DNA from: an uncultured Ruminococcus sp.
GTDB taxonomy: Bacteria; Bacillota; Clostridia; Oscillospirales; CAG-272
NCBI GenBank assembly: GCA_964507065.1
Contig: CAZDON010000001.1
Span: 1 to 47,517, forward strand
DNA: 47,517 nucleotides
Direction: 5' to 3'
Below, piece by piece: positions 2,730-43,949 of this stretch. The translations under genes and the position numbers were made by a program. Under the pieces are notes generated by a model that was given only the letters and a program-made list of their open reading frames with translations, was not told where the DNA came from and did no database searches. How positions within the stretch are numbered: position 1 is the first letter of the stretch; each line of letters starts with the position of its first letter.

Positions 2730-5700
2730 ATGAGTAGCAAGAGCTTTTTTGATGTCTTTTTAAGATATAAGCCAAACGAGGAAAAAAGAAATATACTGAA
2801 TAGCGCCAAGGACGCATCCTTCAGATACAGCAAGGAGCCTATGCGAGTAGAGGTCGAGCTTAGCTTTGACGAGCACGTTGACCCTATGCTTATTTATGAA
2901 ATTGAGGACGAATGCTGTACTCTTTACAATGCGGCGAGCTTCAAGATAATTCCGCATTTTCCAAGTGAAATATTCGAGATGGAGTATTTTCACGAGATAT
3001 GTGCCGAGGCATCGTATATAGGTGCTGTTACCAACGGCTTTTTCTCAGGTGCAAAATACGAGGACGACGGCAGCACCATAACCGTTGCCCTTCCATACCG
3101 TGCCACTGGAATACGCTTCGTAAAGGATGCCAATACCGAGGCGATTATTTCAAATATACTGAAAAGCAGATACGGTGTTACGAGAAAAATAGTGATTACC
3201 GAGAGTGATGACGTCACCTCGCGCGAGGCAGAGATTGAAAAGCGCATCTCTATGCGTATCAAGGCGGCAGAGGAAGAGAGCAGAGAGGAATACGCCCGTC
3301 AGCTAAGCGAGCAGCGCGCAAGGGCAGAAGCGAGGGCGAGGGAAGAGGATCCCCACTATGATTTTGAAAGACGCGCAGGACTTTCCGACTGCACGGGAAA
3401 CAATCAGAATATATCCGACACACAGTTTTTGCGCGGTGAAAAGCTCTACGTTGCCGCCTCACCTGCGGCGATATGGGGAGATACCTTCGTTATAGAGGAG
3501 CCTGTTCCGCTTTCGGATATAACGGCGGCAAAGGGCAATGCGGTGTTTCTTGGCACTGTATTTTCTTGTGAGGGTAAGGAAAACAGAGATGGCGATAAAA
3601 TAAAAATCACCATAGGCATATCGGACGGTGCAGCTGGCATATATGCAAAGAAAACTTTACCGATAGAGGAAAAGGGACTTGCAAAGAAAATCAAGCCCGG
3701 AATGCACGTCGCGGTGTTTGGTAAGCTTGCAACCGATAGATTTGACAATGAGCTCTTTATCGCAATGCGGGGAATTTCTGAAATAGATGCTACCCCAAGA
3801 TACGATGAAGCTGAGGTAAAACGCGTTGAGCTTCACCTGCATACGAATATGTCGCAGATGGACGGTCTTATTACTCCTGCTGAGCTCGTCAGCACGGCAA
3901 TCCGCTGGGGACATTCCGCTATTGCGGTAACCGACCACGGTAACGTTCAGTCATTCCCCGAAATTATGCTTGAGGTAGATAAGGCAAGAAAGAACGGCAA
4001 GGACCTTAAGGTGCTTTACGGTATGGAGTCATACTTCGTAAACGATTCCGCAAGGTGTCTTTTTGGCGAGAAATATCCTGCCTTTGACGATGAAATGGTC
4101 GTGTTCGACCTTGAAACGACGGGACTTTCCTTCCGTACCTGTAAGATAATTGAGATAGGTGCCGTAAAAATCAAGGGTGGCGAAATCATTGATACCTTTG
4201 ATATATTCGTTGACCCTGAGGAGCATATCAGCGAAAAGATAACCGAGCTTACCTCAATTACCGATGAAATGGTTGCCGGCGCTGATAAGGAGCCTGAGGC
4301 AATGAGGAAATTCCTCGATTTCATCGGGGATAGAATGCTTATCGCTCATAACGCTACCTTTGACGTAAGCTTTATAAAGGCGGCGGCAGACAGACTTGGA
4401 ATTAAGATTAAGAATACCTATCTTGATACACTCGGTCTTGCAAAATATTTGAATCCCACCCTCTCAAATCATAAGCTTGATACGCTCGTCAAGCATTATT
4501 CGATAGGCGAATTTCATCATCACAGAGCCTCTGATGACGCACTCGTTACGGCAAAGGTCTTTATGAAGATGATAGAGGGACTTAAAAGTGAGGGCGTCGC
4601 AACCTTCGAGGATATGGTTGCTGCTATGAGAGAGAAATCCGACCCTATCGCACTTCCGAGCTATCATATGATAATAATAGCGAAGGATCAGGTTGGACTT
4701 AAGAATTTATATAAGCTCGTTTCCTTCAGCTACCTTAATTACTTTGGCGGTACGGGCAGACAGAAGAAGGTGCCCAGAATACCCAAATCCGTGCTTGAGG
4801 AGCATAGAGAGGGTCTTATAATAGGCTCCGCCTGCGAGTCAGGTGAGCTTTTCCGCGCACTGCTTGACGGACGAGATGATTCAGAGCTTGAGGAAATCGC
4901 GGAGTTTTACGACTATCTTGAAATTCAGCCGATATCAAACAACCGCTTCCTCATTGCAGAGGGTAAGGCGCGCGACGACGAGGCGCTTCGTGATTTCAAC
5001 CGTAAAATATATGCGCTCGGAAAGAAGCTTGGCAAGCCTGTCGTGGCTACCTGTGACGCTCACTTCCTTAATAAATCCGACGAGCTTTACAGGCGTATAC
5101 TTCTTGCGGGTATGAAGTTTAAGGACGCGGACAAGCCGCTTCCTATATATCTTCGTACAACGGAGGAAATGCTTCCTGAGTTTGACTATCTCGGTAAGGA
5201 GGAGGCGTACGAGGTCGTCGTAGAGAATACCAGACTTATTGCCGATATGTGCGGTGACGTACGCCCTATTCCCAAGGGAAGATACGAGCCTAATATCGAG
5301 GGCGCTGCCGAGGAGCTTACCGAATCCTGCTGGCACAGGGCTCACGAATGGTACGGAGAGGAGCTTCCCGAAATCGTCGAAAAGAGGCTTAAAAGAGAGC
5401 TGGATTCGATTATAGGCAACGGCTTTGCCGTGCTTTATATGATTGCCGTAAAGCTCGTCGCGTATTCCGAATCTCTTGGCTATCTCGTCGGCTCGCGAGG
5501 CTCGGTTGGCTCGTCCTTCGTTGCGACGATGTCGGGTATATCCGAGGTTAATCCGCTTGCTCCGCATTACAGATGCCCGAAGTGTAAGTACAGCGAGTTC
5601 TTCACGGACGGCAGCGTAGGCTCAGGCTTCGACCTTGACGATAAGAACTGTCCTGTGTGCGGTGAGCCGCTTATTATGGACGGACACGATATTCCCTTTG

Positions 5701-7157
5701 AAACCTTCCTTGGCTTCTTCGGTGAAAAATCCCCCGATATTGACCTTAACTTCTCCGGTGACGTTCAGGGTAAGGTGCATAAGTATACCGAGGAGCTTTT
5801 CGGTCAGGGGCACGTTTTCAGAGCGGGAACGATAGGCACTCTCGCTGATAAGACAGCCTGGGGCTACGTCAATAAGTACCTTGAGGAAAAGAAAATAGCT
5901 ATTCCAAAGGCTCAGGTCGACTATATGGTGACAAAGATGGTTGGAATTAAGCGTACGACGAGCCAGCACCCCGGCGGAATTATCGTTGTTCCTACCGAGT
6001 ACGAGATATACGATTTCTCGCCGATACAGCACCCCGCTGACGACCCTAATTCGGACATCATTACCACGCACTATCAGTTCTCTTATCTTCACGATACTAT
6101 TCTTAAGCTTGACGAGCTCGGACACGATATGCCGACCAAGTATAAAATGCTTGAAAAGTACACGGGCACCAGCGTCCTTGACGTCAAGATGAACGATAAG
6201 AGCGTGTACGAGCTTTTCCATTCAACAAAGCCACTCGGCATAACGCCCGACGACATCGGTGGCTGCCAGCTTGGAACCTTTGGTATTCCTGAAATGGGTA
6301 CTCGTTTTATACAGCAGGTGCTTATCGACGCACAGCCAAAAACCTTCGCTGACCTTTTGCAGATATCGGGACTTACCCACGGTACCGACGTATGGCTTGG
6401 AAACGGGCAGGACCTGATAAAGCGGGGAATTTGTACGATTTCCGAGGTTATAGGAACACGCGACGGTATTATGCTTTATCTTCAGCGTCATAATATTGAT
6501 AACTCGGTATCCTTCAACATAATGGAAGCGGTAAGAAAGGGTAAGGGGCTTACCCCTGAGTGGGAACAGATTATGCGTGAGCACGACGTGCCCGACTGGT
6601 ACATAGCGTCGTGTAAGAAGATTAAGTATATGTTCCCGAAGGCTCACGCGGCGGCGTACGTTATGTCTGCTATCCGTCTTTGCTGGTATAAAATCTATTA
6701 TCCTATGGAGTTTTACGCGGCATTCTTTACCGTAGCACCCGGCGGCTTCAATGCCGAAATCGTTATGAAGGGCTACGGCGCGGTAAGCGACGCAATAGAG
6801 GAAATCGAGGCAAGGGGACAGGAGGCAACCGCGAAGGACAACGAAATGCTTGCCACGATGCAGCTCGTAAGAGAGGCACTTGCAAGAGGCGTGCAGTTCC
6901 TGCCCGTCGACCTGTGGAAGTCCGACGCAAAGGCGTTCTTGCCAGAGGACGGAAAAATCAGAATGCCCTTCAACTCACTTCCCGGCGTTGGTGATACCGC
7001 GGGTGAGAAGCTTGCTTATACAAGAGATAATTATACGATACTCTCAATGCAGGAGCTTCGTGAGCTTTCGGGCGTATCGAAGTCCGTGATAGAGCTTCTT
7101 GCGTCCTGCGGCGCACTCGGAAATATGAGCAGGACAAACCAGATTTCATTCTTCTGA
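2730..7157 (+). CDS. polC: DNA polymerase III PolC-type (Gram-positive replicative polymerase)
   Basis: 1475 aa. It has a PHP motif (HLHTNMSQMDG), DEDD exonuclease motifs (VVFDLETTGL, HNATFDVSF, HHHRASDDA), a zinc module (CPKCKY..CPVCG) and a pol III alpha core. Confidence 0.97.
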   Translation: MSSKSFFDVFLRYKPNEEKRNILNSAKDASFRYSKEPMRVEVELSFDEHVDPMLIYEIEDECCTLYNAASFKIIPHFPSEIFEMEYFHEICAEASYIGAVTNGFFSGAKYEDDGSTITVALPYRATGIRFVKDANTEAIISNILKSRYGVTRKIVITESDDVTSREAEIEKRISMRIKAAEEESREEYARQLSEQRARAEARAREEDPHYDFERRAGLSDCTGNNQNISDTQFLRGEKLYVAASPAAIWGDTFVIEEPVPLSDITAAKGNAVFLGTVFSCEGKENRDGDKIKITIGISDGAAGIYAKKTLPIEEKGLAKKIKPGMHVAVFGKLATDRFDNELFIAMRGISEIDATPRYDEAEVKRVELHLHTNMSQMDGLITPAELVSTAIRWGHSAIAVTDHGNVQSFPEIMLEVDKARKNGKDLKVLYGMESYFVNDSARCLFGEKYPAFDDEMVVFDLETTGLSFRTCKIIEIGAVKIKGGEIIDTFDIFVDPEEHISEKITELTSITDEMVAGADKEPEAMRKFLDFIGDRMLIAHNATFDVSFIKAAADRLGIKIKNTYLDTLGLAKYLNPTLSNHKLDTLVKHYSIGEFHHHRASDDALVTAKVFMKMIEGLKSEGVATFEDMVAAMREKSDPIALPSYHMIIIAKDQVGLKNLYKLVSFSYLNYFGGTGRQKKVPRIPKSVLEEHREGLIIGSACESGELFRALLDGRDDSELEEIAEFYDYLEIQPISNNRFLIAEGKARDDEALRDFNRKIYALGKKLGKPVVATCDAHFLNKSDELYRRILLAGMKFKDADKPLPIYLRTTEEMLPEFDYLGKEEAYEVVVENTRLIADMCGDVRPIPKGRYEPNIEGAAEELTESCWHRAHEWYGEELPEIVEKRLKRELDSIIGNGFAVLYMIAVKLVAYSESLGYLVGSRGSVGSSFVATMSGISEVNPLAPHYRCPKCKYSEFFTDGSVGSGFDLDDKNCPVCGEPLIMDGHDIPFETFLGFFGEKSPDIDLNFSGDVQGKVHKYTEELFGQGHVFRAGTIGTLADKTAWGYVNKYLEEKKIAIPKAQVDYMVTKMVGIKRTTSQHPGGIIVVPTEYEIYDFSPIQHPADDPNSDIITTHYQFSYLHDTILKLDELGHDMPTKYKMLEKYTGTSVLDVKMNDKSVYELFHSTKPLGITPDDIGGCQLGTFGIPEMGTRFIQQVLIDAQPKTFADLLQISGLTHGTDVWLGNGQDLIKRGICTISEVIGTRDGIMLYLQRHNIDNSVSFNIMEAVRKGKGLTPEWEQIMREHDVPDWYIASCKKIKYMFPKAHAAAYVMSAIRLCWYKIYYPMEFYAAFFTVAPGGFNAEIVMKGYGAVSDAIEEIEARGQEATAKDNEMLATMQLVREALARGVQFLPVDLWKSDAKAFLPEDGKIRMPFNSLPGVGDTAGEKLAYTRDNYTILSMQELRELSGVSKSVIELLASCGALGNMSRTNQISFF

Positions 7158-21969: not shown

Positions 21970-23049
21970 GTGAAAATTCTCATAGGTCTTTCGGGCGGAG
22001 TGGATTCGGCATATGCCGCACGCCGTCTTATTGAGGACGGTCACGAGGTAGAGGGCTGTGCCTTGCTTATGCACCAATATACCGATACCGAAATGGCAAG
22101 AAAATGTGCAAAGGCGCTCGGTATAAAATTCCGTATTATCGAATGTACCGATCCCTTTGAAAAGATAATTAAGTCGAGCTTCATCAGCGAATACTTAAAG
22201 GCAAGAACACCAAATCCCTGCGTTATATGTAACGGGGAAATTAAGTTCAGATTTCTCTATGATATTGCAATGAGAGAGGGCTTTGATGCAATAGCGACGG
22301 GGCATTACGCAAGTGTAGTAAGGACTGATGACGAAGGCACCTATTCACGCCCCTATTTTGTTGGCGACACTCTGTCACCAACGGAGCATGTGACGCTTAA
22401 GGTCGGATTTGATGAAAAGAAGGACCAGACCTATATGCTCTATCGCGTAGACGAGGAAGTGTTAAAGCACCTCGTGCTTCCTTTGTCAAATATGACAAAA
22501 GGACAGGTAAGGGCCGCGGCAGAGGCGTGTGGTATACCGTCGGCCAACGCCCGTGACAGTCAGGAAATTTGCTTTCTTCAGGGTGAGCACTACGCCGATT
22601 ATATCGAGCGTGTGTCAGGCAAATGCGAGCGTGGCAATTTCATATCCGAGGATGGCAGAGTCCTCGGCACTCACGAGGGAATTATACGTTATACGGTAGG
22701 GCAGCGCAAGGGACTCGGCATTTCATCAACGGGGCGAATTTTCGTTACTGATATAAATCCTATTACCAACGAAATAACGTTGAGCCACGTGGATAAGCTA
22801 TCTCACACCGTGTATGTCAGTGACCTCAGGCTTCTTGGAATATCACGAAAGGACGAGCCTGCCGAATATAGATTTACGGTAAAGCTTCGCTATGCGAAGG
22901 CGTCAGCTCCAGCTCTTGTTGAAATAGCGGGGGATAGGGCGGTCATACGTCTTGATACACCGCAAAGGGCAGTAACACCCGGGCAGTCAGCCGTTTTTTA
23001 CAAAGATGGCGTGCTTATCGGTGGCGGCATAATAGATAGAAGCGAATAA
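21970..23049 (+). CDS. mnmA: tRNA-specific 2-thiouridylase
   Basis: GTG start. PP-loop GLSGGVDSA, NPCVICN motif, full-length MnmA-like sequence. Confidence 0.92.
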   Translation: MKILIGLSGGVDSAYAARRLIEDGHEVEGCALLMHQYTDTEMARKCAKALGIKFRIIECTDPFEKIIKSSFISEYLKARTPNPCVICNGEIKFRFLYDIAMREGFDAIATGHYASVVRTDDEGTYSRPYFVGDTLSPTEHVTLKVGFDEKKDQTYMLYRVDEEVLKHLVLPLSNMTKGQVRAAAEACGIPSANARDSQEICFLQGEHYADYIERVSGKCERGNFISEDGRVLGTHEGIIRYTVGQRKGLGISSTGRIFVTDINPITNEITLSHVDKLSHTVYVSDLRLLGISRKDEPAEYRFTVKLRYAKASAPALVEIAGDRAVIRLDTPQRAVTPGQSAVFYKDGVLIGGGIIDRSE

Positions 23050-23050
23050 A

Positions 23051-23102
23051 AAGCAAAGCGAGCCGTGAGGTCAAAAGACCTAACGGCTCGCTTTGCTTTT
23101 AT
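23051..23102. terminator. long hairpin terminator after mnmA (bidirectional)
   Basis: 16-bp stem AAGCAAAGCGAGCCGT / ACGGCTCGCTTTGCTT with an inner GAGGTC/GACCT extension, followed by TTTT. Confidence 0.75.
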
Positions 23103-23251
23103 AAATCGTCTACGTCCTGCACGGGCTTTTCATTTTTGTTTTCCGGAACACCCGTATACGAGCCGTTGGGGTCGGTGCAAATGCTCTCGTCATACCCCTC
23201 TGTTAGCTTCTTAACCTCATCCGTGCTTTTCTTTTTCGATTTATCCTTCAT
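23099..23251 (-). CDS. unannotated small ORF, 50 aa (MKDKSKKKSTDEVKKLTEGYDESICTDPNGSYTGVPENKNEKPVQDVDDL)
   Basis: Below the ORF-track cutoff. ATG at 23251 is preceded by a GAGGAAGAG SD at good spacing. The ORF ends inside the mnmA terminator. No family recognised. Confidence 0.4.
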   Translation of the reverse strand: MKDKSKKKSTDEVKKLTEGYDESICTDPNGSYTGVPENKNEKPVQDVDDL

Positions 23252-23328
23252 AACTCTTCCTCATAATTCGTTTTTATAATTTTGTGAGGATTAAATCGTT
23301 TTTATGCAAAAAAACATAGTATTTCATG

Positions 23329-36533: not shown

Positions 36534-36745
36534 TGATTTTGTTTTCCTTTCGTAATTTTGTTTTTTTGGGGGGTTGTATCGTACGATTTGTTTTTCCAAG
36601 CGTAACGAGTCGCTTTTTCTCGCGCTTTCCGCTTGTGCGATAGCCACGAAGTCGATACGTCTTACTTGTTACGCGTTAAGGTGCGTAAGTCCTATATATC
36701 CTGAGCCTCTTGTGAGGCGGTTTATATCTGATTTTGGGTATAAGA

Positions 36746-36773
36746 AAAGCACACTGCCGAAGCGGTGTGCTTT
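36746..36773 (-). terminator. intrinsic terminator closing cassette 2 (repeat copy 1)
   Basis: The minus strand reads AAAGCACACCGC-TTCG-GCAGTGTGCTTT followed by TCTTATACCCAAAAT. 12-bp stem with a UUCG loop. Confidence 0.7.
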
Positions 36774-36781
36774 GTAATTAT

Positions 36782-36964
36782 TCATTTTTCTAAAACATTG
36801 AATAAAGAAGGTGGATATAGAAAATCCTCTCCACTTTCGTCAATGATAGAATACCATTTTAACTTTTTGCTAACACTTATGACCTCATATACTTTCCCTT
36901 CGATGAGATCTACCGTGCTTAAATTCGTCTTTTTCCTTGCAACTTCATTGACTACGACCTTCAT
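36782..36964 (-). CDS. small ORF B2, immunity-like partner of A2 (60 aa)
   Basis: ATG at 36964 is 1 nt after the A2 stop, with a GGAGA SD 8 nt upstream. MKVVVNEVARKK...WYSIIDESGEDFLYPPSLFNVLEK. AT-rich. No family recognised. Confidence 0.6.
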   Translation of the reverse strand: MKVVVNEVARKKTNLSTVDLIEGKVYEVISVSKKLKWYSIIDESGEDFLYPPSLFNVLEK

Positions 36965-36965
36965 A

Positions 36966-37427
36966 CTATATCTCCGATTTGAATTTAAACTCAACTTTTC
37001 CGACGTGTGATTCTTCGTACCAATGGATTTCTGCTTTCAAATACTCGCCGTATTTCGTAACAATTTCCGCAACTGCTTTAACTTTCATCCATTCGCTTTC
37101 TATTGTACCGGGATAATCATGCAGCAAACGGTTAATATCATCAATTTTTCGGACGCATCCTTTACCTGCAAATATTTCTTTGTTTTGAAGTTTAGATCCT
37201 TCGACAAAACTGGCGATTCCACCGTCGGGCATTTTTATATCATGATTCGCCCATTTCGCACCGACAGAACGAGGAATATCCTCATCTGGAAGTTTTACCG
37301 TATCATTAAACGTATGGCTAATAGGCTCGCCGCTGCCGGGGAGTATCGAACCTATCTTTCCGCCCGCATTTCCGTCCGTAAACCTGCCTAAATCATCTCT
37401 CGGATGGTCTTTTTCATTCCATATCAT
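36966..37427 (-). CDS. HPR-GRFT leader protein A2, candidate capsid-delivered effector/toxin
   Basis: 153 aa. N-terminus MIWNEKDHPRDDLGRFT..GSILPGSGE is paralogous to that of ORF 42781..43269. C-terminal domain ..KGCVRKIDDINRLL..KAEIHWYEESHVGKVEFKFK. Lies immediately after the MuF-like gene. Confidence 0.6.
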   Translation of the reverse strand: MIWNEKDHPRDDLGRFTDGNAGGKIGSILPGSGEPISHTFNDTVKLPDEDIPRSVGAKWANHDIKMPDGGIASFVEGSKLQNKEIFAGKGCVRKIDDINRLLHDYPGTIESEWMKVKAVAEIVTKYGEYLKAEIHWYEESHVGKVEFKFKSEI

Positions 37428-37456
37428 AGTATATCATTATTCCTCTCGGTTGTCAA
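37428..37456 (-). promoter_or_regulatory. near-consensus sigma-A promoter abutting the A2 start codon
   Basis: The minus strand has TTGACA (37456-37451, containing the MuF TGA stop), a 17-nt spacer, and TATACT (37433-37428), directly followed by the ATG at 37427. Confidence 0.5.
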
Positions 37457-38682
37457 GTTTTATTGTCGAGCTTTCGCTTGTCCTGTCTGCGAAGCGAGAA
37501 AGTGCGCTCGTCATCAAGAATACGAGTGCGCTCTCGGTAGAACGCCGCGTTATTCTTTAAAGAGAAGCGCTCATACGCTGCGTTGAGCGTCCTGGCGCGT
37601 TTCCTTGCGCGTTTGGCAAGGGCGTTATTAATTCCGTCCGCCTGAACGGCAAGACGCTTCTGGTAGCGAATTTCACGCTCGTACGCGCGCTGCTTTTCCT
37701 CGACCTCGCGACGTTTTTGGATGACGGCGGTAGGAATCGGCTTCGGTCTCTCGCCCGGGCGGTATGCCTGTAACGTGTGCCGACAGTTAAATCCCGTAAT
37801 GCAACCGTTCTGATATACGCGGCCCTCGCGGGTGACGTACTCGTCCTCGGGGTTGTCCGTCGCATATTCAAGCGGACGGTAGAAGATGCCTTCCGCGGTC
37901 TTACCCGTCGAGCCGTCAAGTGAGTATAGTCCCGATGGATGCTTTGAGCCGCCGACCTGGTATTTTGCACACCGCTTTGAGCAATTCGCGTGCGGTATGA
38001 TGTAGACGAGCTTTACGCCACGCTCACGAAGTCCGTTTACCATATCGACCTGATGCTCGTAACGAACGGTCATTTCTGCGATATTTCTCAGATTAACGTT
38101 GACGCCGTATTCCTCGCGTGCATCACCGCCTACGATTTCGCCCAGGACTTCTTTCACGCTCTCGGTGTATCGTTTATGGTACAAGTCAAGCGGGAGCCCC
38201 TGGCGGTAGTTATCCGCGCGCGTTGCCCACGCCGCGCTGTCGAAAGGCGACGGTGACGATTTGAAGCTTTCAAGCATTAACTTGAAGCCCTGAGAGGTTA
38301 CAAGCTCGCGGCTGTAATCTTTGTCGAGAATTGCGCTCTTGTATAGCCTTGCCGTCGCAAGCTCGCTCTTGCCGTCAAGCGCCGACGTGACTGCCGAATA
38401 AAAAAGCGCACTCTCGTAAATAAGCCGCCTCTCGCGTGTGAGTGTATCAATGGAATATTTTCGCAACGGCAAAACGATACGCTCGCGAAGCGTAGCGCTT
38501 GATATGTCGCGCTGAGCGTCGGAAATAATCCTCGTTACCTCTTCCGCGTAGCGCTTCAATGGATAGTTATGCAATACGGCGCGCTTTGCCAGCTCGATAA
38601 TCCTTACCTCCGCATCCTCTACGACGAGAGGTGCTGCGGACTGAATCTCTGGAGCTTCATCACGCGTCTTGTTTATCGTCAT
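37453..38682 (-). CDS. MuF/SPP1 gp7-like minor head (head morphogenesis) protein
   Basis: 409 aa immediately after the portal gene (23-nt overlap). C-terminal Cys/His-rich region (HANCSKRC.., GFNCRHT) resembles the MuF-type H-x-NCRC motif. Basic helical tail. Confidence 0.55.
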   Translation of the reverse strand: MTINKTRDEAPEIQSAAPLVVEDAEVRIIELAKRAVLHNYPLKRYAEEVTRIISDAQRDISSATLRERIVLPLRKYSIDTLTRERRLIYESALFYSAVTSALDGKSELATARLYKSAILDKDYSRELVTSQGFKLMLESFKSSPSPFDSAAWATRADNYRQGLPLDLYHKRYTESVKEVLGEIVGGDAREEYGVNVNLRNIAEMTVRYEHQVDMVNGLRERGVKLVYIIPHANCSKRCAKYQVGGSKHPSGLYSLDGSTGKTAEGIFYRPLEYATDNPEDEYVTREGRVYQNGCITGFNCRHTLQAYRPGERPKPIPTAVIQKRREVEEKQRAYEREIRYQKRLAVQADGINNALAKRARKRARTLNAAYERFSLKNNAAFYRERTRILDDERTFSLRRQDKRKLDNKT

Positions 38683-40324
38683 ATGACTTTATCTCCGTAT
38701 CTGCATCCATTGAGTCGAATATTGACATTTGAGACTTTTGCTTTTCCGCTTGTTCACTGCGTATCTTCTTAATCTCTGCCGTAATCATAGCCTCGTTCCA
38801 GTCGGGATGGACGGTACGCACAAATTCTTCGAGCGAGGAGCCGCCTGCCGTATAGATTCTTAGAGCATTCTCGACGAGGAGCGTGTAATTCGTCTGGCCA
38901 GCTTTCGAAAACGACGCCTGAATCTTACCGTCCCAGCCGTAATACAGACGCACGTCCTCAACAATTCGGTTGATGGTATAGAGCAGACCGACGCGCTTGT
39001 TTTCCACGAGAAGCGTCGTCGAGCTTTCCTCAGCGGATATCTCACGTGCCGTACGGTTGGACGTGTCGTTGAGGTATGAGGCAAACGACGAGGGCGCTAT
39101 GCCTATTGCCGTCGCAATGTTCTCAAGGAGCATATTGCGGACAGCCTTCATCTGCTCGGCACGTAGCTCAGGCTGAATGAACGTCAGCGGTCGGCTCTCT
39201 TGGCCCATTTCCTCATAGTAGGTCATAAGAAAGTTGTCAAGTCCGCTGTTGTAGTTAGCCTTCTGCGGATTCTGATACGCCTTTTTTGCAAGCACGCGGG
39301 CGCGAGATACGTACATTTCGGTGTCTATAATGGACGACAGTATGTCGTAGTCGCAAAGATATTTGATAATACCCTCAAGCACCGAGTCACCGTATGCAAG
39401 CTGCGGCATTGACGTGAGGCGCGGAGTGTTCTTGTATAGGTAAACGCCTATATGAGAAAACGGGATTCTGATAGGCTTGTCCAGCCGTATATCGCTGTAT
39501 GCTTCCTTCAGCTGCTTTCTCGCCCACGCGGGAATCTCTTCCCACGCAAGGTAGGTACTTGGCATCTGACTCTGATTGCACTGCGTGGAAATCCTGTACA
39601 CCTTGTAAATGCAATAAGGAACGCCGTCAATGTACGTGCGCTCCTCAAACAGTCCAAGCGTTTCGCTGTCAGGCTTGGTTGGGTGTGCAAAGGTCTGTAT
39701 GTAAAACTGCGCGGTTATCGGGTTGCCCTTTGCGTCAAGCGTGTATTTGGTGCGTGAGAGGGGTGCTGCCTCCACCCATATCTTCCGACACGAGTCGATA
39801 TTGAGCTTAAACGCCGCCGTTCCGAGCCCCGTTGCGTACCGTATTACCGTCTGCACGACCGACGAGAAGCTCGTTTCAGCCGCCCATTCGTCGAGGTTGT
39901 CAAGCGTCTCGTTGCGACCGTTGTCGTTTTTCTCGTTATCGGTTGCCGCGTAGTTTATACCGCCGCCAAAGATTAACGCCGTGACCTTGTCAACGATAGC
40001 TTTTGCGAGATGCGTCGGGATTACGCCCTTAGAGAGGTCGTGAAAGTCGGGAACGAGTCCGTTTATCCAGTATTCCCAGTTCATAACCTTGCGATAGAAC
40101 GGCTTAAGGTTGGGGGATATTGAATTATAGAAGGTGGTATTGTTTACCCAGGAATAATACTCCTGTATCGCCATACCGATATACTCGCTTGTCGGCGCGA
40201 AATTGATAGCGCCCTTTCCACCAAGTCCGGGAATAAGAGCGCCGATTCCGTTATTCATATTTGCGGACTGTCCGCCCGTTGCGTTCGCCGCCGCGGCGCT
40301 CTTGGCGCTCTTCGTAGTAGTCAT
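38660..40324 (-). CDS. portal protein
   Basis: 554 aa. Position is between terL (plus one small ORF) and the MuF-like gene. Size is typical. The family was not confirmed by eye. Confidence 0.65.
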   Translation of the reverse strand: MTTTKSAKSAAAANATGGQSANMNNGIGALIPGLGGKGAINFAPTSEYIGMAIQEYYSWVNNTTFYNSISPNLKPFYRKVMNWEYWINGLVPDFHDLSKGVIPTHLAKAIVDKVTALIFGGGINYAATDNEKNDNGRNETLDNLDEWAAETSFSSVVQTVIRYATGLGTAAFKLNIDSCRKIWVEAAPLSRTKYTLDAKGNPITAQFYIQTFAHPTKPDSETLGLFEERTYIDGVPYCIYKVYRISTQCNQSQMPSTYLAWEEIPAWARKQLKEAYSDIRLDKPIRIPFSHIGVYLYKNTPRLTSMPQLAYGDSVLEGIIKYLCDYDILSSIIDTEMYVSRARVLAKKAYQNPQKANYNSGLDNFLMTYYEEMGQESRPLTFIQPELRAEQMKAVRNMLLENIATAIGIAPSSFASYLNDTSNRTAREISAEESSTTLLVENKRVGLLYTINRIVEDVRLYYGWDGKIQASFSKAGQTNYTLLVENALRIYTAGGSSLEEFVRTVHPDWNEAMITAEIKKIRSEQAEKQKSQMSIFDSMDADTEIKSYDDKQDA

Positions 40325-40729: not shown

Positions 40730-42089
40730 AATAGTCAGCCCTTTCAGGTAAGTTTAGATTTTCAGGATTTTCAAAGTACGCGCAAGCACCGTACACGAAT
40801 GAGTCCGAGCAGTCGTTCGGTATCGCGGGGTCAAGGCGTGAGTTCTTCCAGGCTACGTTCTCAAGCTGCTCGACAAGAAGCGGCACGTCCGTATCTACCC
40901 AGCGGCTCGACGCATAATCGTAATATCCGCCGTAGTCCACTATATACGCCATATTGCGCGCAAACACGTTGTTTGCGGTGGAGGTGTTGCGGATGACGTT
41001 CTTCCTCGTGAACGGAATAACGTTGTAATAGCCGTCAAGCTCGTACTGCAACTGCGTGATAAGGTCCTCGGATGCACAGTCGACGAAGAAGTACACGGGA
41101 ATGTAATTTGATTGCAGACCGTACTTTCGTTCCATATCCCGCATATAAAGCGCGATAAGCTCGGCAAGCTGCGACGGTGCCAACGGTCTACCGTACGTCA
41201 GCGGATTAAATATAAACGGCTCAAGCACCGCCATTCGTCCGCTCGTCATAATCGCCTGGAAGTTGAGGCACGTCATATCGTGCGTTATAGCACCGTCACC
41301 TCCAATAAATACGGTGTGAATGCGTTCGCCCGCAAAAACCCGTGATGCTTCGTCGGGCGTTATTACGTGACGCTCGCGGCTGAACGAGGGATACGCGCCG
41401 CCGTTGATGTCCGAGAGGTCACCGAGATACATAAATTTGTAGAGTGCAGGGGATATTATTTTTTCAAGCTCGATATTCTTACGGTCCGCCTCGTTCAGAA
41501 GCTCGTAAATATCCAGATAGTTTGAAGATATGTGCGTATAATCGTCAAGTCCCTTGTGCTTTGCCGCGTAGACGTTCCACCAGTGGCCCTTGATTTCGTG
41601 CGGGTTGCCGCACAGCATAAGTCGGTAGTCAATGCTCGTGTCAATGTATCGGCGGAAGGATGCCAGGGCGTGCTTCAGGTTTTCCTCGTCGCTTATCTGC
41701 TGGCACTCGTCGCCGATGATGAACGCAAGAGGATTTTTCGGGTGGAATCCGCGGACGCGAGATTTGTCGTGTCCGCTTACGCCCAGGAAATATATATTGC
41801 TTTTGCCGCCGTCAAGCTCAAGGCGTAGCGGCTGCTGCCTTATCTTCACCCTCGCGCCGTAGCCGAGGTTTACGAATTTCTCAAGCGTGTCGTTGACGAC
41901 CGAAGAGAGGAGCGAGTTCGCGTTCGCGCGGAATACGATACCGTCGTGATTCGGGTACGTTATCTTTGAGTACGCGCCGTATTGCGACACCTCGTACGAC
42001 TTGCCCGAAATACGTGGGCAGTTAAGTATTATATTGTGGTCGCCCGTCTGGTACATCGGACGATACGGCTCCGATACGTACATCCTCAT
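40707..42089 (-). CDS. terL: terminase large subunit
   Basis: 460 aa. ATGA overlap with terS. N-terminal P-loop-like NCPRISGKSY, followed by acidic Walker-B-like and C-terminal nuclease-like regions. Synteny is terS-terL-portal. Confidence 0.8.
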   Translation of the reverse strand: MRMYVSEPYRPMYQTGDHNIILNCPRISGKSYEVSQYGAYSKITYPNHDGIVFRANANSLLSSVVNDTLEKFVNLGYGARVKIRQQPLRLELDGGKSNIYFLGVSGHDKSRVRGFHPKNPLAFIIGDECQQISDEENLKHALASFRRYIDTSIDYRLMLCGNPHEIKGHWWNVYAAKHKGLDDYTHISSNYLDIYELLNEADRKNIELEKIISPALYKFMYLGDLSDINGGAYPSFSRERHVITPDEASRVFAGERIHTVFIGGDGAITHDMTCLNFQAIMTSGRMAVLEPFIFNPLTYGRPLAPSQLAELIALYMRDMERKYGLQSNYIPVYFFVDCASEDLITQLQYELDGYYNVIPFTRKNVIRNTSTANNVFARNMAYIVDYGGYYDYASSRWVDTDVPLLVEQLENVAWKNSRLDPAIPNDCSDSFVYGACAYFENPENLNLPERADYYEEFERA

Positions 42090-42472
42090 TTATCGCCGTC
42101 ACCGTCCTTTTTGGAATTATCCACGAATACGATTTCAAGCTTGCCGTCCTGTTCGGCGGCCGCTCCTTCCTGCGACTCACCGAGGATGAGAGAGAGCTGC
42201 GTGAGGTCGTTGAGCGATACGTCCTTGAGCTTGTTTACAAGAGCGAGGATGGTCATAAGCTCCTTGACCTTGACGTTATCCCCGAGCCCCAGCTCCTTTG
42301 CGTACGCCTGAACGACGGCACGGTTTTTGACGGGCTCGTTAAGCAGCGCGCCGACAAGCTCTCGGAAGGTCCTTTGCGCTCTCCGCGCCTTGCCGCTTGC
42401 GATTCCGCCCGCGCGACCTTTTTCTCGTGCTTCACTCGCGGTTGGTCTTTTTAAGTTTTTCTCATTTGCCAT
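42086..42472 (-). CDS. terS: terminase small subunit
   Basis: 128 aa. Basic N-terminal DNA-binding-like segment (EKGRAGGIASGKARRAQR). Located immediately upstream of and overlapping terL. Confidence 0.6.
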   Translation of the reverse strand: MANEKNLKRPTASEAREKGRAGGIASGKARRAQRTFRELVGALLNEPVKNRAVVQAYAKELGLGDNVKVKELMTILALVNKLKDVSLNDLTQLSLILGESQEGAAAEQDGKLEIVFVDNSKKDGDGDK

Positions 42473-42494: not shown

Positions 42495-42524
42495 ATGAAA
42501 AAGCACCTTGCCGAAGCAAAGTGC
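42495..42524 (-). terminator. intrinsic terminator just upstream of terS
   Basis: The minus strand reads GCACTTTGC-TTCG-GCAAGGTGC followed by TTTTTCATT. 9-bp stem with one mismatch and a UUCG loop. Confidence 0.6.
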
Positions 42525-42544
42525 CGTGTTTTAAGTTTTGGGTA

Positions 42545-42577
42545 TATGAAAAGCACACCGCGGGGAACGGTGTGCTT
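42545..42577 (-). terminator. intrinsic terminator closing cassette 1 (repeat copy 2)
   Basis: The minus strand reads AAGCACACCG-TTCCCCG-CGGTGTGCTT followed by TTCATATACCCAAAAC. The flank matches the 36731-36754 copy at 22 of 24 positions. Confidence 0.65.
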
Positions 42578-42581
42578 GGGG

Positions 42582-42791
42582 TTATTGTTTTTTTATCGGG
42601 TCGCCAAATATAGTCAAGCCCTTTGCGTAATTCTTCCTGGCTTCTCTTATGGTTGTGTAGTTGATTCGTACACGCTCATTTTCGTCGATTTCATGTTCGT
42701 TTCCGACTGGAATCCATTGACATGTGGGGCACGGGTCTTCAAACATCCCCCCCATAAATACCGTTCCACAAATAGCGCATTTATACTCCAT
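42582..42791 (-). CDS. small ORF B1, CPCC-like cysteine-rich zinc-ribbon protein (69 aa), partner of A1
   Basis: ATG at 42791 overlaps the A1 end by 11 nt. MEYKCAICG..CPTCQW.. then ..TIREARKNYAKG resembles the Cys-rich CPCC family pattern. This is from memory and not verified. Confidence 0.55.
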   Translation of the reverse strand: MEYKCAICGTVFMGGMFEDPCPTCQWIPVGNEHEIDENERVRINYTTIREARKNYAKGLTIFGDPIKKQ

Positions 42792-43269
42792 ACAATTTAT
42801 CCCTGTATACCTTTCTCTCAAAATCTTTTTGAGACATAAAATAGTAAGTTTTCACCGTACCATCGGTGCCAACGCTCATAAATTCGTCGGTTAAATGATT
42901 GTATTTATAAAAATTATTGGTTGCTTTAGAATAGTACACATTTCCTTCGCCACTGTTCCAAAAGTCAATGGCAGCCTTTTCATATTCCTTGGAATCCTTA
43001 AATCCCATTTCGGAAACATGCCTTTGATGATGAGCAGTATACAGCCTGTGATTTTCAAAACCGTACGCCTCTTGGGGCAGAAGAGGGATTTCAGTTTTTT
43101 GTCGGTTGTCAGATTCTTTTTTAGGTTGATTTTTACCAAAGTAATCAAGTTCCAGCTTAAATCTTTCGTCAACCTCACCCTTGCCGGGAACGATACTTCC
43201 GACACCGTCGCGGCTTGTAAATCTGCCGATTTTATTACGAGGATGCTCTTCCTCTTTCCACTGCTTCAT
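42781..43269 (-). CDS. HPR-GRFT leader protein A1, candidate effector/toxin (possible BECR-like nuclease fold)
   Basis: I prefer the ATG at 43269 (MKQWKEEEHPRNKIGRFT..GSIVPGKGE, AAAGGA SD), by analogy with A2. The ORF-track extension to 43362 runs through a terminator-like hairpin. His-rich C-terminal domain (NHRLYTAHHQRHVSEMGF...TVKTYYF). Confidence 0.6.
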   Translation of the reverse strand: MKQWKEEEHPRNKIGRFTSRDGVGSIVPGKGEVDERFKLELDYFGKNQPKKESDNRQKTEIPLLPQEAYGFENHRLYTAHHQRHVSEMGFKDSKEYEKAAIDFWNSGEGNVYYSKATNNFYKYNHLTDEFMSVGTDGTVKTYYFMSQKDFERKVYRDKLYGV

Positions 43270-43296
43270 TATACCACATCCTTTGGAATTTGTCAA
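43268..43296 (-). promoter_or_regulatory. perfect consensus sigma-A promoter overlapping the A1 start codon
   Basis: The minus strand has TTGACA (43296-43291), a 17-nt spacer ending in TGG, and TATAAT (43273-43268). The last AT of the -10 plus the next G form the ATG at 43269. Confidence 0.55.
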
Positions 43297-43300
43297 TGCT

Positions 43301-43336
43301 CGTGAAAACAGGGCGCACGTTTCACCGTACACCCTG
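43301..43336 (-). terminator. terminator-like hairpin 5 nt upstream of the cassette 1 promoter
   Basis: The minus strand reads CAGGGTGTACG-GTGAAA-CGTGCGCCCTG followed by TTTTCACG. 11-bp stem including two G-U pairs. Confidence 0.5.
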
Positions 43337-43493
43337 TCTGCCGTCCTCAGCCCCGTCACCACACGGGGAGCGCGATACGGCTGCCACGTGGTCGCGCTTG
43401 CTTCTTAGAAAGGAGGTGCAAATGTAATATGACATCTGCAAGAAAGCCGCCTGAAAAAGCGCCATCATATCCTGAGCACGATATGATATTGTA

Positions 43494-43524
43494 ATTATAC
43501 CACAGGTGTGGGGGTGAAAATCAA
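43494..43524 (-). promoter_or_regulatory. extended -10 promoter downstream of the late-regulator gene
   Basis: The minus strand has TGGTATAAT (43502-43494). The only -35-like hexamer is TTGATT at a 19-nt spacing. Confidence 0.4.
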
Positions 43525-43556: not shown

Positions 43557-43949
43557 TCAAAATTTCGAGAATTTTTCGCGGAGCGCGCTCAATGTACGCT
43601 TGACCGTCCGCTCACACATATGCAGCTCCGTCGCAATCTTCCTCACGCTCCAGCCGCGCCTGTACTTCAGTATAAGCACGTCGTACTCGTTCTCGTCAAG
43701 CGTCTTTCCGAATCGTTCAAGTGTACAATACGCGTCGTGGACTGCTCGTCTTGCGTCCTCTCGTGCGCTAAGCAGCTCCTCGTGCTTCTGACAAATGGGC
43801 GCGAGCTTGTCGTGACTCGCGGGCGTTGCGTTGAAGCCCTCGCCCGACGGCGCGGGCGGGGCGTAGATAACAGACTCGTATTCCGTGAGATTATCTCTTG
43901 CGCGGTTTAACGATTTTACAGCGTTTATGTATATTTTTAAGCTATCCAT
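43557..43949 (-). CDS. phage late-gene transcriptional regulator, sigma-70 region-4 / RinA-ArpU-like HTH
   Basis: 130 aa. C-terminal HTH ILKYRRGWSVRKIATELHMCERTVKRTLSALREKF. Lies just upstream of the packaging module, as late activators do in Bacillota phages. Confidence 0.5.
   Translation of the reverse strand: MDSLKIYINAVKSLNRARDNLTEYESVIYAPPAPSGEGFNATPASHDKLAPICQKHEELLSAREDARRAVHDAYCTLERFGKTLDENEYDVLILKYRRGWSVRKIATELHMCERTVKRTLSALREKFSKF

Follow-up and report, generated by a model that had tools for sequence, protein, structure and literature searches.

The DNA stretch considered in this work (hereafter, the window) comprises 47,517 nt from an uncultured Ruminococcus sp. (assembly GCA_964507065.1, contig CAZDON010000001.1, positions 1-47,517, forward strand). 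On its minus strand, within a prophage, lies a small cassette (cassette 1) made up of two overlapping open reading frames (ORFs), A1 and B1, which a first-pass annotation had taken for a fully insulated effector/partner module. All the features listed in that annotation, namely the hairpins, the promoter, both ORFs, and the terminator, were found on the minus strand where it had placed them. The same holds for the location of the cassette, between a late regulator (43557..43949) and a putative terS gene (42472..42086). Unless otherwise stated, these and all the features of the window described below lie on the minus strand. The late regulator is a protein of 130 amino acids (aa) with a sigma-70 region-4 helix-turn-helix, and its best PHROG is "anti-termination protein Q-like". 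The putative terS is a 128-aa ORF with a 4-nt overlap with TerL; it is assigned by position only, and family searches retrieved no match for it except the unnamed phrog_2412.

Proceeding in the direction of transcription, cassette 1 starts with a terminator-like hairpin (43301..43336; CAGGGUGUACGGUGAAACGUGCGCCCUG followed by UUUUCA), which is part of a conserved 5' module and folds, within 43345..43295, with a free energy (dG) of -25.8 kcal/mol (z -4.1). It is followed by a SigmaA/sigma-70-type promoter (43268..43296), TTGACA-17-TATAAT with a TRTG/TG extension, matching the consensus at 12/12 positions. As the first-pass annotation had it, this promoter is perfect, and it is the only perfect one in the 47.5-kb window; allowing up to one mismatch, the same search retrieved six sites in the window versus 0.37 expected by chance. 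A1 (42781..43269) codes for a 162-aa protein and B1 (42582..42791) for a 69-aa one, the start of B1 overlapping the end of A1 by 11 nt. The cassette is closed by a terminator hairpin (42545..42577; AAGCACACCG...CGGTGTGCTT followed by TTCATATACCCAAAA; dG -17.7, z -6.5). The first-pass list lacked both the overlap between the -10 hexamer and the A1 start codon and a second hairpin with a U-tract (42502..42525; dG -15.3, z -5.5), located directly upstream of the putative terS start, and it left the N-terminal leader of A1 unexplained. The 37 nt running from the 3' part of this second hairpin to the terS start are 100% identical to those of the related locus L001. Cassette 1 is compositionally foreign and, as previously stated, AT-richer than the flanking phage genes: its GC content is 38.5-39.5% over 42600-43200 versus 50-55% in both flanks. 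A megablast search of the 8.5-kb region against the GenBank phages did not retrieve any match.

The A1 protein has a three-part build, i.e., a leader of about 33 residues (43171..43269, codons 1-33; MKQWKEEEHPRNKIGRFT....GSIVPGKGE) containing the motif [WF]xExxHPRDxxG[KR]F, a disordered linker of about 30 residues, and a 98-residue domain (42781..43077, codons 65-162). No match was found for A1 in Pfam (expectation value, E, up to 1), NCBIfam, or PADLOC; in PHROGs, only a weak match was obtained, to the C-terminal end of a family annotated as "portal protein", which corresponds to the fusion of phage FP_Brigit described below. Word-indexed searches retrieved one relative each for A1 and B1, and only an exhaustive HMMER search brought the family to light. 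Probing with A1 and its one close relative yielded 293 cluster representatives (clusters at 50% identity, E up to 1e-3), nearly all of 100-200 aa, which have the C-terminal domain, of about 92 residues, in common. Related loci were searched for with a 15-sequence alignment of this domain, the full-length alignment of 83 sequences being too divergent.

In the AlphaFold (AF2) model of A1, built from a two-sequence alignment, residues 1-58 are disordered and residues 60-162 are folded, with a predicted local distance difference test (pLDDT) score of about 80; the folded part consists of two helices (79-87 and 93-106), four strands across residues 110-144, and a further helix (147-157). The comparison of this model with the PDB by Foldseek placed first 8ey4_A (probability 1.0, template modelling score 0.67 on the target), the toxin chain of a CdiA-CT/CdiI complex from E. 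coli O32:H37, followed by five colicin D tRNase chains. The same chain was retrieved when the PDB sequences were probed with a profile of 83 family members (E 7e-8), and hhalign assigned a probability of 90.7% to the match; in this alignment, the K-H of the toxin falls on K/R83-His84, and its RT on position 140 and Thr141. The likeness to small BECR/CdiA-CT-like RNase domains, which the first-pass annotation had put forward, is therefore backed by both structure and profile searches.

The conserved positions of the family are Phe71, His84 (122/123), Gly89, Tyr96 (123/123), Ala100, Gly137, and Thr/Ser141 (123/123), with position 83 being occupied by K in 43 and by R in 35 of the 123 members. 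The H..HH..H pattern followed by T.YF, already pointed out in the first reading of this DNA, contains precisely the practically invariant His84, placed after K or R, together with Thr/Ser141, which never varies. An N-terminal helix bearing a histidine that follows a basic residue, and a last strand bearing an alcoholic residue, make up the arrangement reported for colicin-D-like BECR RNases (PMC5512222; bioRxiv 10.64898/2026.08.28.747851). The A1 family displays the core fold of this group, the K/R-His plus Thr/Ser signature, and the profile homology to the 8EY4 toxin; on the basis of the model, the folding of the C-terminal 98 residues of A1 as a colicin-D-like BECR RNase is supported. The active site would be formed by Arg83-His84 (His84 codon, 43020..43018) on the N-terminal helix and Thr141 (42849..42847) on the last strand, and A1 is predicted to be a metal-independent endoribonuclease. 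The PBECR models (PF18809-PF18814) did not match A1, nor any of the family members scanned (0/83 at E up to 0.01). Among the distant members of the family, other architectures were also observed, i.e., fusions with a CPCC domain on either side (CPCC-A and A-CPCC), N-terminal zf_Tbcl fusions, the C-terminus of a three-PASTA protein, and domains placed behind signal-peptide/transmembrane segments (proteins P0145, of 204 aa; P0032, of 266 aa; P0137/P0138; P0131; and P0119-P0151).

Concerning B1, its assignment to the CPCC family, which the first-pass annotation had also suggested, was confirmed at the limit of significance: the score with the Pfam model Cys_rich_CPCC (PF14206) is 24.5 bits (E 2.3e-5), exactly the gathering score of 24.5, and thus borderline. 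The alignment of 13 partner sequences from related loci revealed that C5, C8, C21, C24, and W26 are invariant, and that the partners carry the features of the family, that is, two CxxC pairs and a Trp, followed by a C-terminal N..S/T..A-K/R segment. When the profile of these 13 partners was compared with the PDB, the two best matches were 8ey4_I and 8ey3_A (E 8e-6; hhalign probability 96.7%), both deposited as "Cys_rich_CPCC domain-containing protein". Since the A profile finds the toxin chain and the B profile the immunity chain of the same complex, the A1-B1 pair as a whole is homologous to a toxin-immunity pair of solved structure.

The two genes are also linked on the genome, a CPCC gene being found directly after the A gene in 11/11 loci (the window, L001/L002, and nine genome loci), and within one of the fused proteins (P0145) the CPCC domain was recognized by Pfam with an E of 1e-18. 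These sequence and model comparisons support a toxin plus immunity reading of A1/B1, in which B1, a four-cysteine CPCC zinc ribbon, would bind and block the A1 RNase, as does the homologous CdiI in PDB 8EY4. At locus L005 (5161..5707), a single A1-type gene is followed by a tandem of two CPCC genes, coding for 88 and 86 aa; another A1-type/CPCC pair occurs 3 kb further downstream, and positions 3557..4297 are occupied by an additional leader ORF, of 246 aa.

The similarity to the E. coli O32:H37 system (PDB 8EY4; immunity protein alone, 8EY3) thus embraces both genes, the BECR fold, the K/R-His and Thr signature, the CPCC zinc-ribbon partner, and the gene order from toxin to immunity. The E. 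coli toxin, however, is the tip of a large CdiA protein of a proteobacterium, demarcated by a VENN motif and used in contact-dependent inhibition (CDI), whereas A1 is a stand-alone Clostridia prophage protein of 162 aa with an HPRDxxGKF leader, and the identity between the two is only about 24%. The tRNase domain of colicin D, known with its immunity protein ImmD (PDB 1V74, 1TFK, 1TFO, 5ZNM), has the same fold and the catalytic His after a basic residue on the N-terminal helix, but its identity with A1 is 10-14%, its immunity protein is unrelated to CPCC, and it is accompanied by receptor-binding and translocation domains.

The leader of A1 turned out to be a conserved element in its own right. 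Its consensus over 66 stand-alone proteins is [WF]-[DKN]-E-[SE]-x-H-P-R-D-x-x-G-[KR]-F-T, the His being residue 7-9; all 66 of them carry HPR, G, and F without variation, always at 7-9 residues from Met1. The same 14 residues, after K-[DE], occur in 7, 5, and 4 copies in proteins of 2302, 3010, and 1503 aa, respectively, and in the first of these the copies flank MuF, Zeta-toxin, and ADP-ribosyltransferase (ART) domains. A search of IMG/VR with a strict back-translated pattern retrieved at least 140 occurrences of the motif in at least 120 contig stretches, and, among the matches listed, most are internal to long ORFs. We sampled 29 motif-bearing long ORFs among these listed matches for a Pfam scan. 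Portal domains are present in 7/29 (Phage_portal_3 in five, Portal_Mu in one, and Phage_portal in one) and Phage_Mu_F in 4/29, DUF2213 being also represented; the effectors comprise ART-PolyVal, ADPrib_exo_Tox, PBECR1, PBECR3, Acb1, S-adenosylmethionine (SAM) lyase, 2H phosphoesterase, GNAT, and InPase. Judging from these architectures, the motif, which is widespread in phages, is a junction between the virion-anchoring domains and the effector repertoire of polyvalent proteins. It is not mentioned in the text of Iyer et al. (PMC5512222).

An isolated phage, Faecalibacterium phage FP_Brigit, joins all these elements in one protein: its 828-aa "portal protein" consists of Phage_portal_3 and NUDIX domains, then ...MDFNEADHPRDENGQFAEG..., which carries the HPRD motif, and finally the A domain, and it is followed by a 62-aa CPCC ORF (E 2e-11). 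In the window phage, no prohead protease gene was found between the portal gene (40324..38660) and that of the major capsid protein, the arrangement being SPP1-like, and the idea that the leader is a prohead-protease site was judged unlikely for this reason. The absence of such a protease, together with the strong conservation in stand-alone proteins, argues in favour of an action of the motif in the mature module, most simply by docking to a head component, and we infer that the leader may do so. It would then bring A1 into or onto the virion, from which a few molecules would enter the next host with the DNA. We regard such a leader-dependent entry of A1 into or onto the virion, with delivery to the next host, as a plausible course of events, falling somewhat short of an even chance. 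An ORF with an HPRD leader coding for 180 aa is present at locus L010 (15148..15690), and it weakly matches LPD3 (E 9e-4), the large polyvalent protein-associated domain 3. In P0025, P0037, P0055, and P0080, the RNase domain of the A1 family is headed by yet another recurrent peptide, W-x-T-[VI]-x-G-x-H-[IV]-[PF]-[IVL]-x-x-G-Q. Taken with the other leader types, this peptide points to a set of interchangeable short leaders.

Cassette 1 is not the only one of its kind. A second cassette (cassette 2; 36740..37456) lies directly after the MuF2 gene (Phage_min_cap2; 38682..37453) and comprises a promoter, A2, B2, and a terminator of the same type. Its promoter (37456..37428), TTGACA-17-TATACT, shows the same promoter-on-ATG layout as in cassette 1. 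A2 (37427..36966) codes for a 153-aa protein with a leader as in A1 (MIWNEKDHPRDDLGRFT....GSILPGSGE) and a different effector domain, unrelated to that of A1; B2 (36964..36782) codes for a 60-aa protein that is not a CPCC one. The terminator (36773..36746) is nearly identical to that of cassette 1 (AAGCACACCG...GTGTGCTTTTC[A/T]TATACCCAAAA), and the alignment of the 3' ends revealed that it is common to the two cassettes of the window and to both those of L001. MuF2 has its own stop codon, 25 nt past which A2 starts, and is out of frame with A2; the GC content at cassette 2 is 36-39%. The A2 model (pLDDT 84.7) did not retrieve any meaningful fold match from the PDB; in BFVD, the A2 domain matched the C-terminal region of a "minor capsid protein" of 451 aa (E 1e-10, 38% identity). 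The conserved residues of A2 include N61, E76, G77, W113, K117, H135, and W136.

In related Clostridia genomes, cassettes were found before TerL, between TerL and the portal gene, or between the portal and MuF genes, and one locus (L013) harbors three of them. The hairpin-plus-promoter block of cassette 1 shares 97% identity over 67 nt with the second block of L001, placed ahead of an A2-type gene, and 88% identity with the block preceding the A1-type cassette of L001. The latter locus (4719..6160), as well as L002, is a decayed prophage remnant lying between a GH43 gene and degV/plsX/fakA; it retains an intact A1-type pair, the first (about 36) codons of terS, and then the second hairpin-promoter block. 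In both L001 and L002, the A2-type gene is broken by stop codons and a deletion and its B2-type partner gene is intact, a pattern that would be expected of an orphan immunity gene. The first-pass annotation had called cassette 1 a moron, and this term suits a low-GC element with promoter-like and terminator-like elements of its own, whose position and copy number vary among related prophages.

The leaders and the effector domains are combined in different ways. Several alternative leaders (HPRDxxGKF; MANNRIAYGLAK...; KKGAGGxPQxYD; and DRNGxLHSExNGRF) are common to the A1-type and A2-type families, and the leader variant of A1 also heads an A2-type domain, both in P0118 and in the second cassette of L001. 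Such a leader-by-effector shuffling is typical of polymorphic toxins.

As for the expression of cassette 1, the -10 hexamer (43273..43268) overlaps the ATG of A1 (43269..43267), and a Shine-Dalgarno (SD)-like AAGGA lies inside the promoter spacer. A -10 overlapping the ATG or lying no more than 4 nt from it was found in 8/9 distinct leader ORFs, at separate loci, so that the layout is conserved and not an accident. Since the usual transcription start, 6-8 nt past the -10, falls in codon 3 or 4, the cassette promoter cannot express A1; no in-frame start was found downstream of the A1 ATG, which is backed as the true start by the homologs. The "full insulation" of the module is thus right in part: promoter-like and terminator-like elements are present, but with its -10 on the ATG the promoter cannot deliver an A1-coding mRNA. 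The single exception among the nine leader ORFs is the 180-aa one of L010, which has an ordinary ribosome-binding site (RBS) and no overlapping promoter. A leaderless translation of A1 from the cassette promoter was considered and discarded, since the ATG falls within the -10 or right behind it, not 6-8 nt downstream, and since the earliest start codons of the predicted transcripts are in another frame and meet a stop after 2-8 codons.

Both B1 and B2 have an SD-like sequence of their own. There is no room for a promoter between the last hairpin and terS; hence, late transcription must cross these hairpins. The transcript of the cassette promoter would be translated into B1 only, which would make lysogens and newly infected cells immune. 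A1, in turn, would come only from late read-through of the upstream hairpin under the Q-like regulator, on transcripts including the RBS and the ATG of A1. We propose this split expression, with a B1-only promoter transcript and A1 from late read-through, in a tentative way.

A candidate late promoter, showing the extended -10 TGTGGTATAAT as in the cassette promoter and lacking a good -35, was observed at about 43510..43480, shortly past the Q-like/sigma-like regulator and some 170 nt before the 43336..43301 hairpin; this layout of candidate promoter and hairpin is similar to that of lambda PR'-tR'. Two more hairpins precede the terminator-like one in the window (43403..43337), with a counterpart in L001 (4590..4650). 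Their stems are kept despite sequence change between the window and L001 (GCGCGA/TCGCGC versus GCGTGA/TCACGC, and CCCCG/CGGGG versus CTCG/CGAG), which suggests a structured 5' leader RNA, possibly tied to antitermination. The region 43403..43332 also resembles a type II hammerhead ribozyme (Rfam Hammerhead_II), with a score of 22.7 bits, below the gathering score of 37; this candidate was dismissed because its GAAA core is GCAA and its CUGANGA box is CCGAGGA in both L001 copies.

With regard to the rest of the window, positions from 1 to about 23,100 represent an ordinary Firmicutes chromosome (PolC, GlmM, PepF-like, ROK, NifS, and MnmA), the remainder being prophage. The boundary falls at about 23,100..23,300, where mnmA (21970..23049, plus strand) is followed by minus-strand prophage genes from 23274. 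The contig ends at 47,517, inside the prophage, and the integrase/lysogeny end lies outside the window.

Taken together, cassette 1 is probably a toxin-immunity moron that moves horizontally and resides in a Clostridia prophage, drawn from the same pool of effectors as the portal and MuF fusions of other phages. What the computation established is the anatomy of the cassette, the fold of A1, the homology of the pair, the A-B linkage, the foreign composition, the shuffling, and the place of the motif in the fusions. Its most fitting description is that of a mobile, stand-alone variant of the known MuF/portal polymorphic toxins. What is new comprises a possible cargo-tag role of the leader, the putative promoter-on-start-codon switch, CPCC as a candidate RNase immunity family, and a toxin family not covered by Pfam.

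The MuF polymorphic toxins (Jamet et al. 2017, PMC5576092) are similarly encoded in the head/packaging module of temperate Firmicutes phages, and they bear a variable C-terminal toxin domain, found in other polymorphic toxin families, followed by an ORF of <150 aa; B1 (69 aa) and B2 (60 aa) are such small ORFs, and cassette 2 sits exactly at the place of the MuF C-terminal extension. On the other hand, A1 and A2 are separate ORFs with promoter-like and terminator-like elements of their own, and cassette 1 precedes terS, a long way from the MuF gene. According to Pfam, A1 is devoid of a MuF domain, and MuF2 is out of frame with A2; therefore, neither A1 nor A2 possesses the feature that defines the MuF toxins. 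In the polyvalent proteins (Iyer et al. 2017, PMC5512222), BECR RNases are likewise fused to portal/MuF domains or occur solo in phages, and the HPRD motif lies between the domains of giant MuF/Zeta/ART proteins, beside PBECR1, PBECR3, and ART-PolyVal; A1 differs from PBECR in matching none of PBECR1-5 or the other Pfam models and in being a single domain.

A further parallel is offered by lambdoid phages, in which the stxAB moron is located downstream of Q, between the late antiterminator and the late genes. In both cases, a toxin cassette with its own promoter comes after a late regulator and a hairpin resembling a terminator, before the late structural genes, a place at which late read-through would express it; the two differ in toxin class, host, and gene order, and antitermination in the window phage is suggested by weak Q-like matches only.

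Some of the data speak against the interpretation of cassette 1 as a phage-delivered toxin-immunity moron. The homology of A1 and B1 to 8EY4 comes from family profiles and from a model built on a two-sequence alignment: as single sequences, A1 did not retrieve any match among the PDB sequences and B1 only non-significant ones (E 0.45 or worse), and the best Foldseek E-value for A1 is only 4e-3, a modest one. In a literature search, we found no paper on 8EY4 or on the CPCC family (PF14206). The distant members with signal peptides or PASTA domains indicate that the A domain is not limited to phage delivery. Moreover, a stand-alone A1 has no covalent link to the capsid, and the binding of its leader to the portal or MuF protein is something that we infer. 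As far as the split expression is concerned, the B gene of L001 has a weak SD, and its start overlaps the A stop (TAATG), which points to translational coupling and would undercut a B-only expression. Lastly, the natural A-CPCC and CPCC-A fusions (P0032 and P0145) are unusual for a toxin and its inhibitor, and the zinc ribbon could be a functional partner instead.

Three alternative explanations were weighed. According to the first, A1/B1 would be an intracellular toxin-antitoxin or abortive-infection module, never packaged and serving for addiction or for the killing of superinfected cells, with the leader being a recombination scar from MuF/portal fusions. The intact pair that survives amid chromosomal genes in the decayed L001/L002 remnant fits addiction or host benefit, the A1/B1 gene overlap is as in type II toxin-antitoxin operons, and the strong promoter of the cassette and its prophage location are in line with the same idea. 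However, the strong conservation of the leader protein sequence in the stand-alone proteins, where its key residues never change, is not what a scar would show; the order, with the toxin first and the inhibitor second, is that of polymorphic toxin and CDI modules; PADLOC gave no match; and the cassettes cluster in the packaging/head module and not in the lysogeny one. We consider this explanation unlikely.

The fusions just mentioned bear on the second alternative, in which A1 would be a regulatory RNase serving the phage, like T4 RegB or in the roles proposed for PBECR, and cutting host, defence, or phage RNAs in the lytic cycle, with B1 as its zinc-ribbon cofactor or specificity subunit. RegB is indeed a BECR-fold phage RNase, and mRNA or CRISPR-RNA targets have been proposed for phage BECR domains (PMC5512222); the A-CPCC, CPCC-A, and zf_Tbcl-A fusions are what would be expected of a working partner. 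Nevertheless, the homologous CPCC protein is entered in 8EY4 as the immunity member of a CDI toxin-immunity complex, and the tandem CPCC genes that follow one A gene at L005 look like immunity gene arrays, which makes a regulatory RNase quite improbable. Finally, a bacteriocin-like toxin set free at lysis against neighbours, with B1 protecting the producer, would suit the presence of the same toxin domain in CdiA, an interbacterial weapon, and a late expression coinciding with lysis, but it is hardly credible for a 162-aa cytoplasmic RNase with no evident route into a Gram-positive neighbour, in which neither Pfam nor the model revealed a receptor-binding domain, a translocation domain, or a signal peptide.

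The interpretation of cassette 1 as a mobile toxin-immunity moron can also be taken further. In its extended form, the motif would be a portable virion-cargo tag, marking the start of each effector module in portal, MuF, and polyvalent proteins and sufficing for the non-covalent loading of stand-alone proteins such as A1 and A2 into the capsid and for their co-injection with the DNA; the promoter/start-codon arrangement would be a two-state switch, with immunity alone produced in the lysogen and early after infection and the toxin added to it only while virions are assembled; and CPCC would be the immunity for the whole RNase family. Taken as a whole, this extension is rather doubtful.

Packaging and injection have been proposed, on inferential grounds, as the route of the MuF-type toxins to their targets (PMC5576092, PMC5512222). 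The cassettes split the effector from the head protein and yet keep the short leader, so that the packaging question becomes directly testable; if the leader is a cargo tag, arbitrary proteins might be loaded into phage capsids. The promoter-on-start-codon layout, if the split expression is true, would represent a compact way of uncoupling immunity from toxin expression. The A-domain family, with about 290 clusters at 50% identity, would be an RNase toxin family without any Pfam model covering it, and the pairing provides the CPCC family (PF14206) with a predicted RNase-immunity function. One and the same toxin-immunity pair is common to E. coli contact-dependent inhibition and to the prophages of gut Clostridia.

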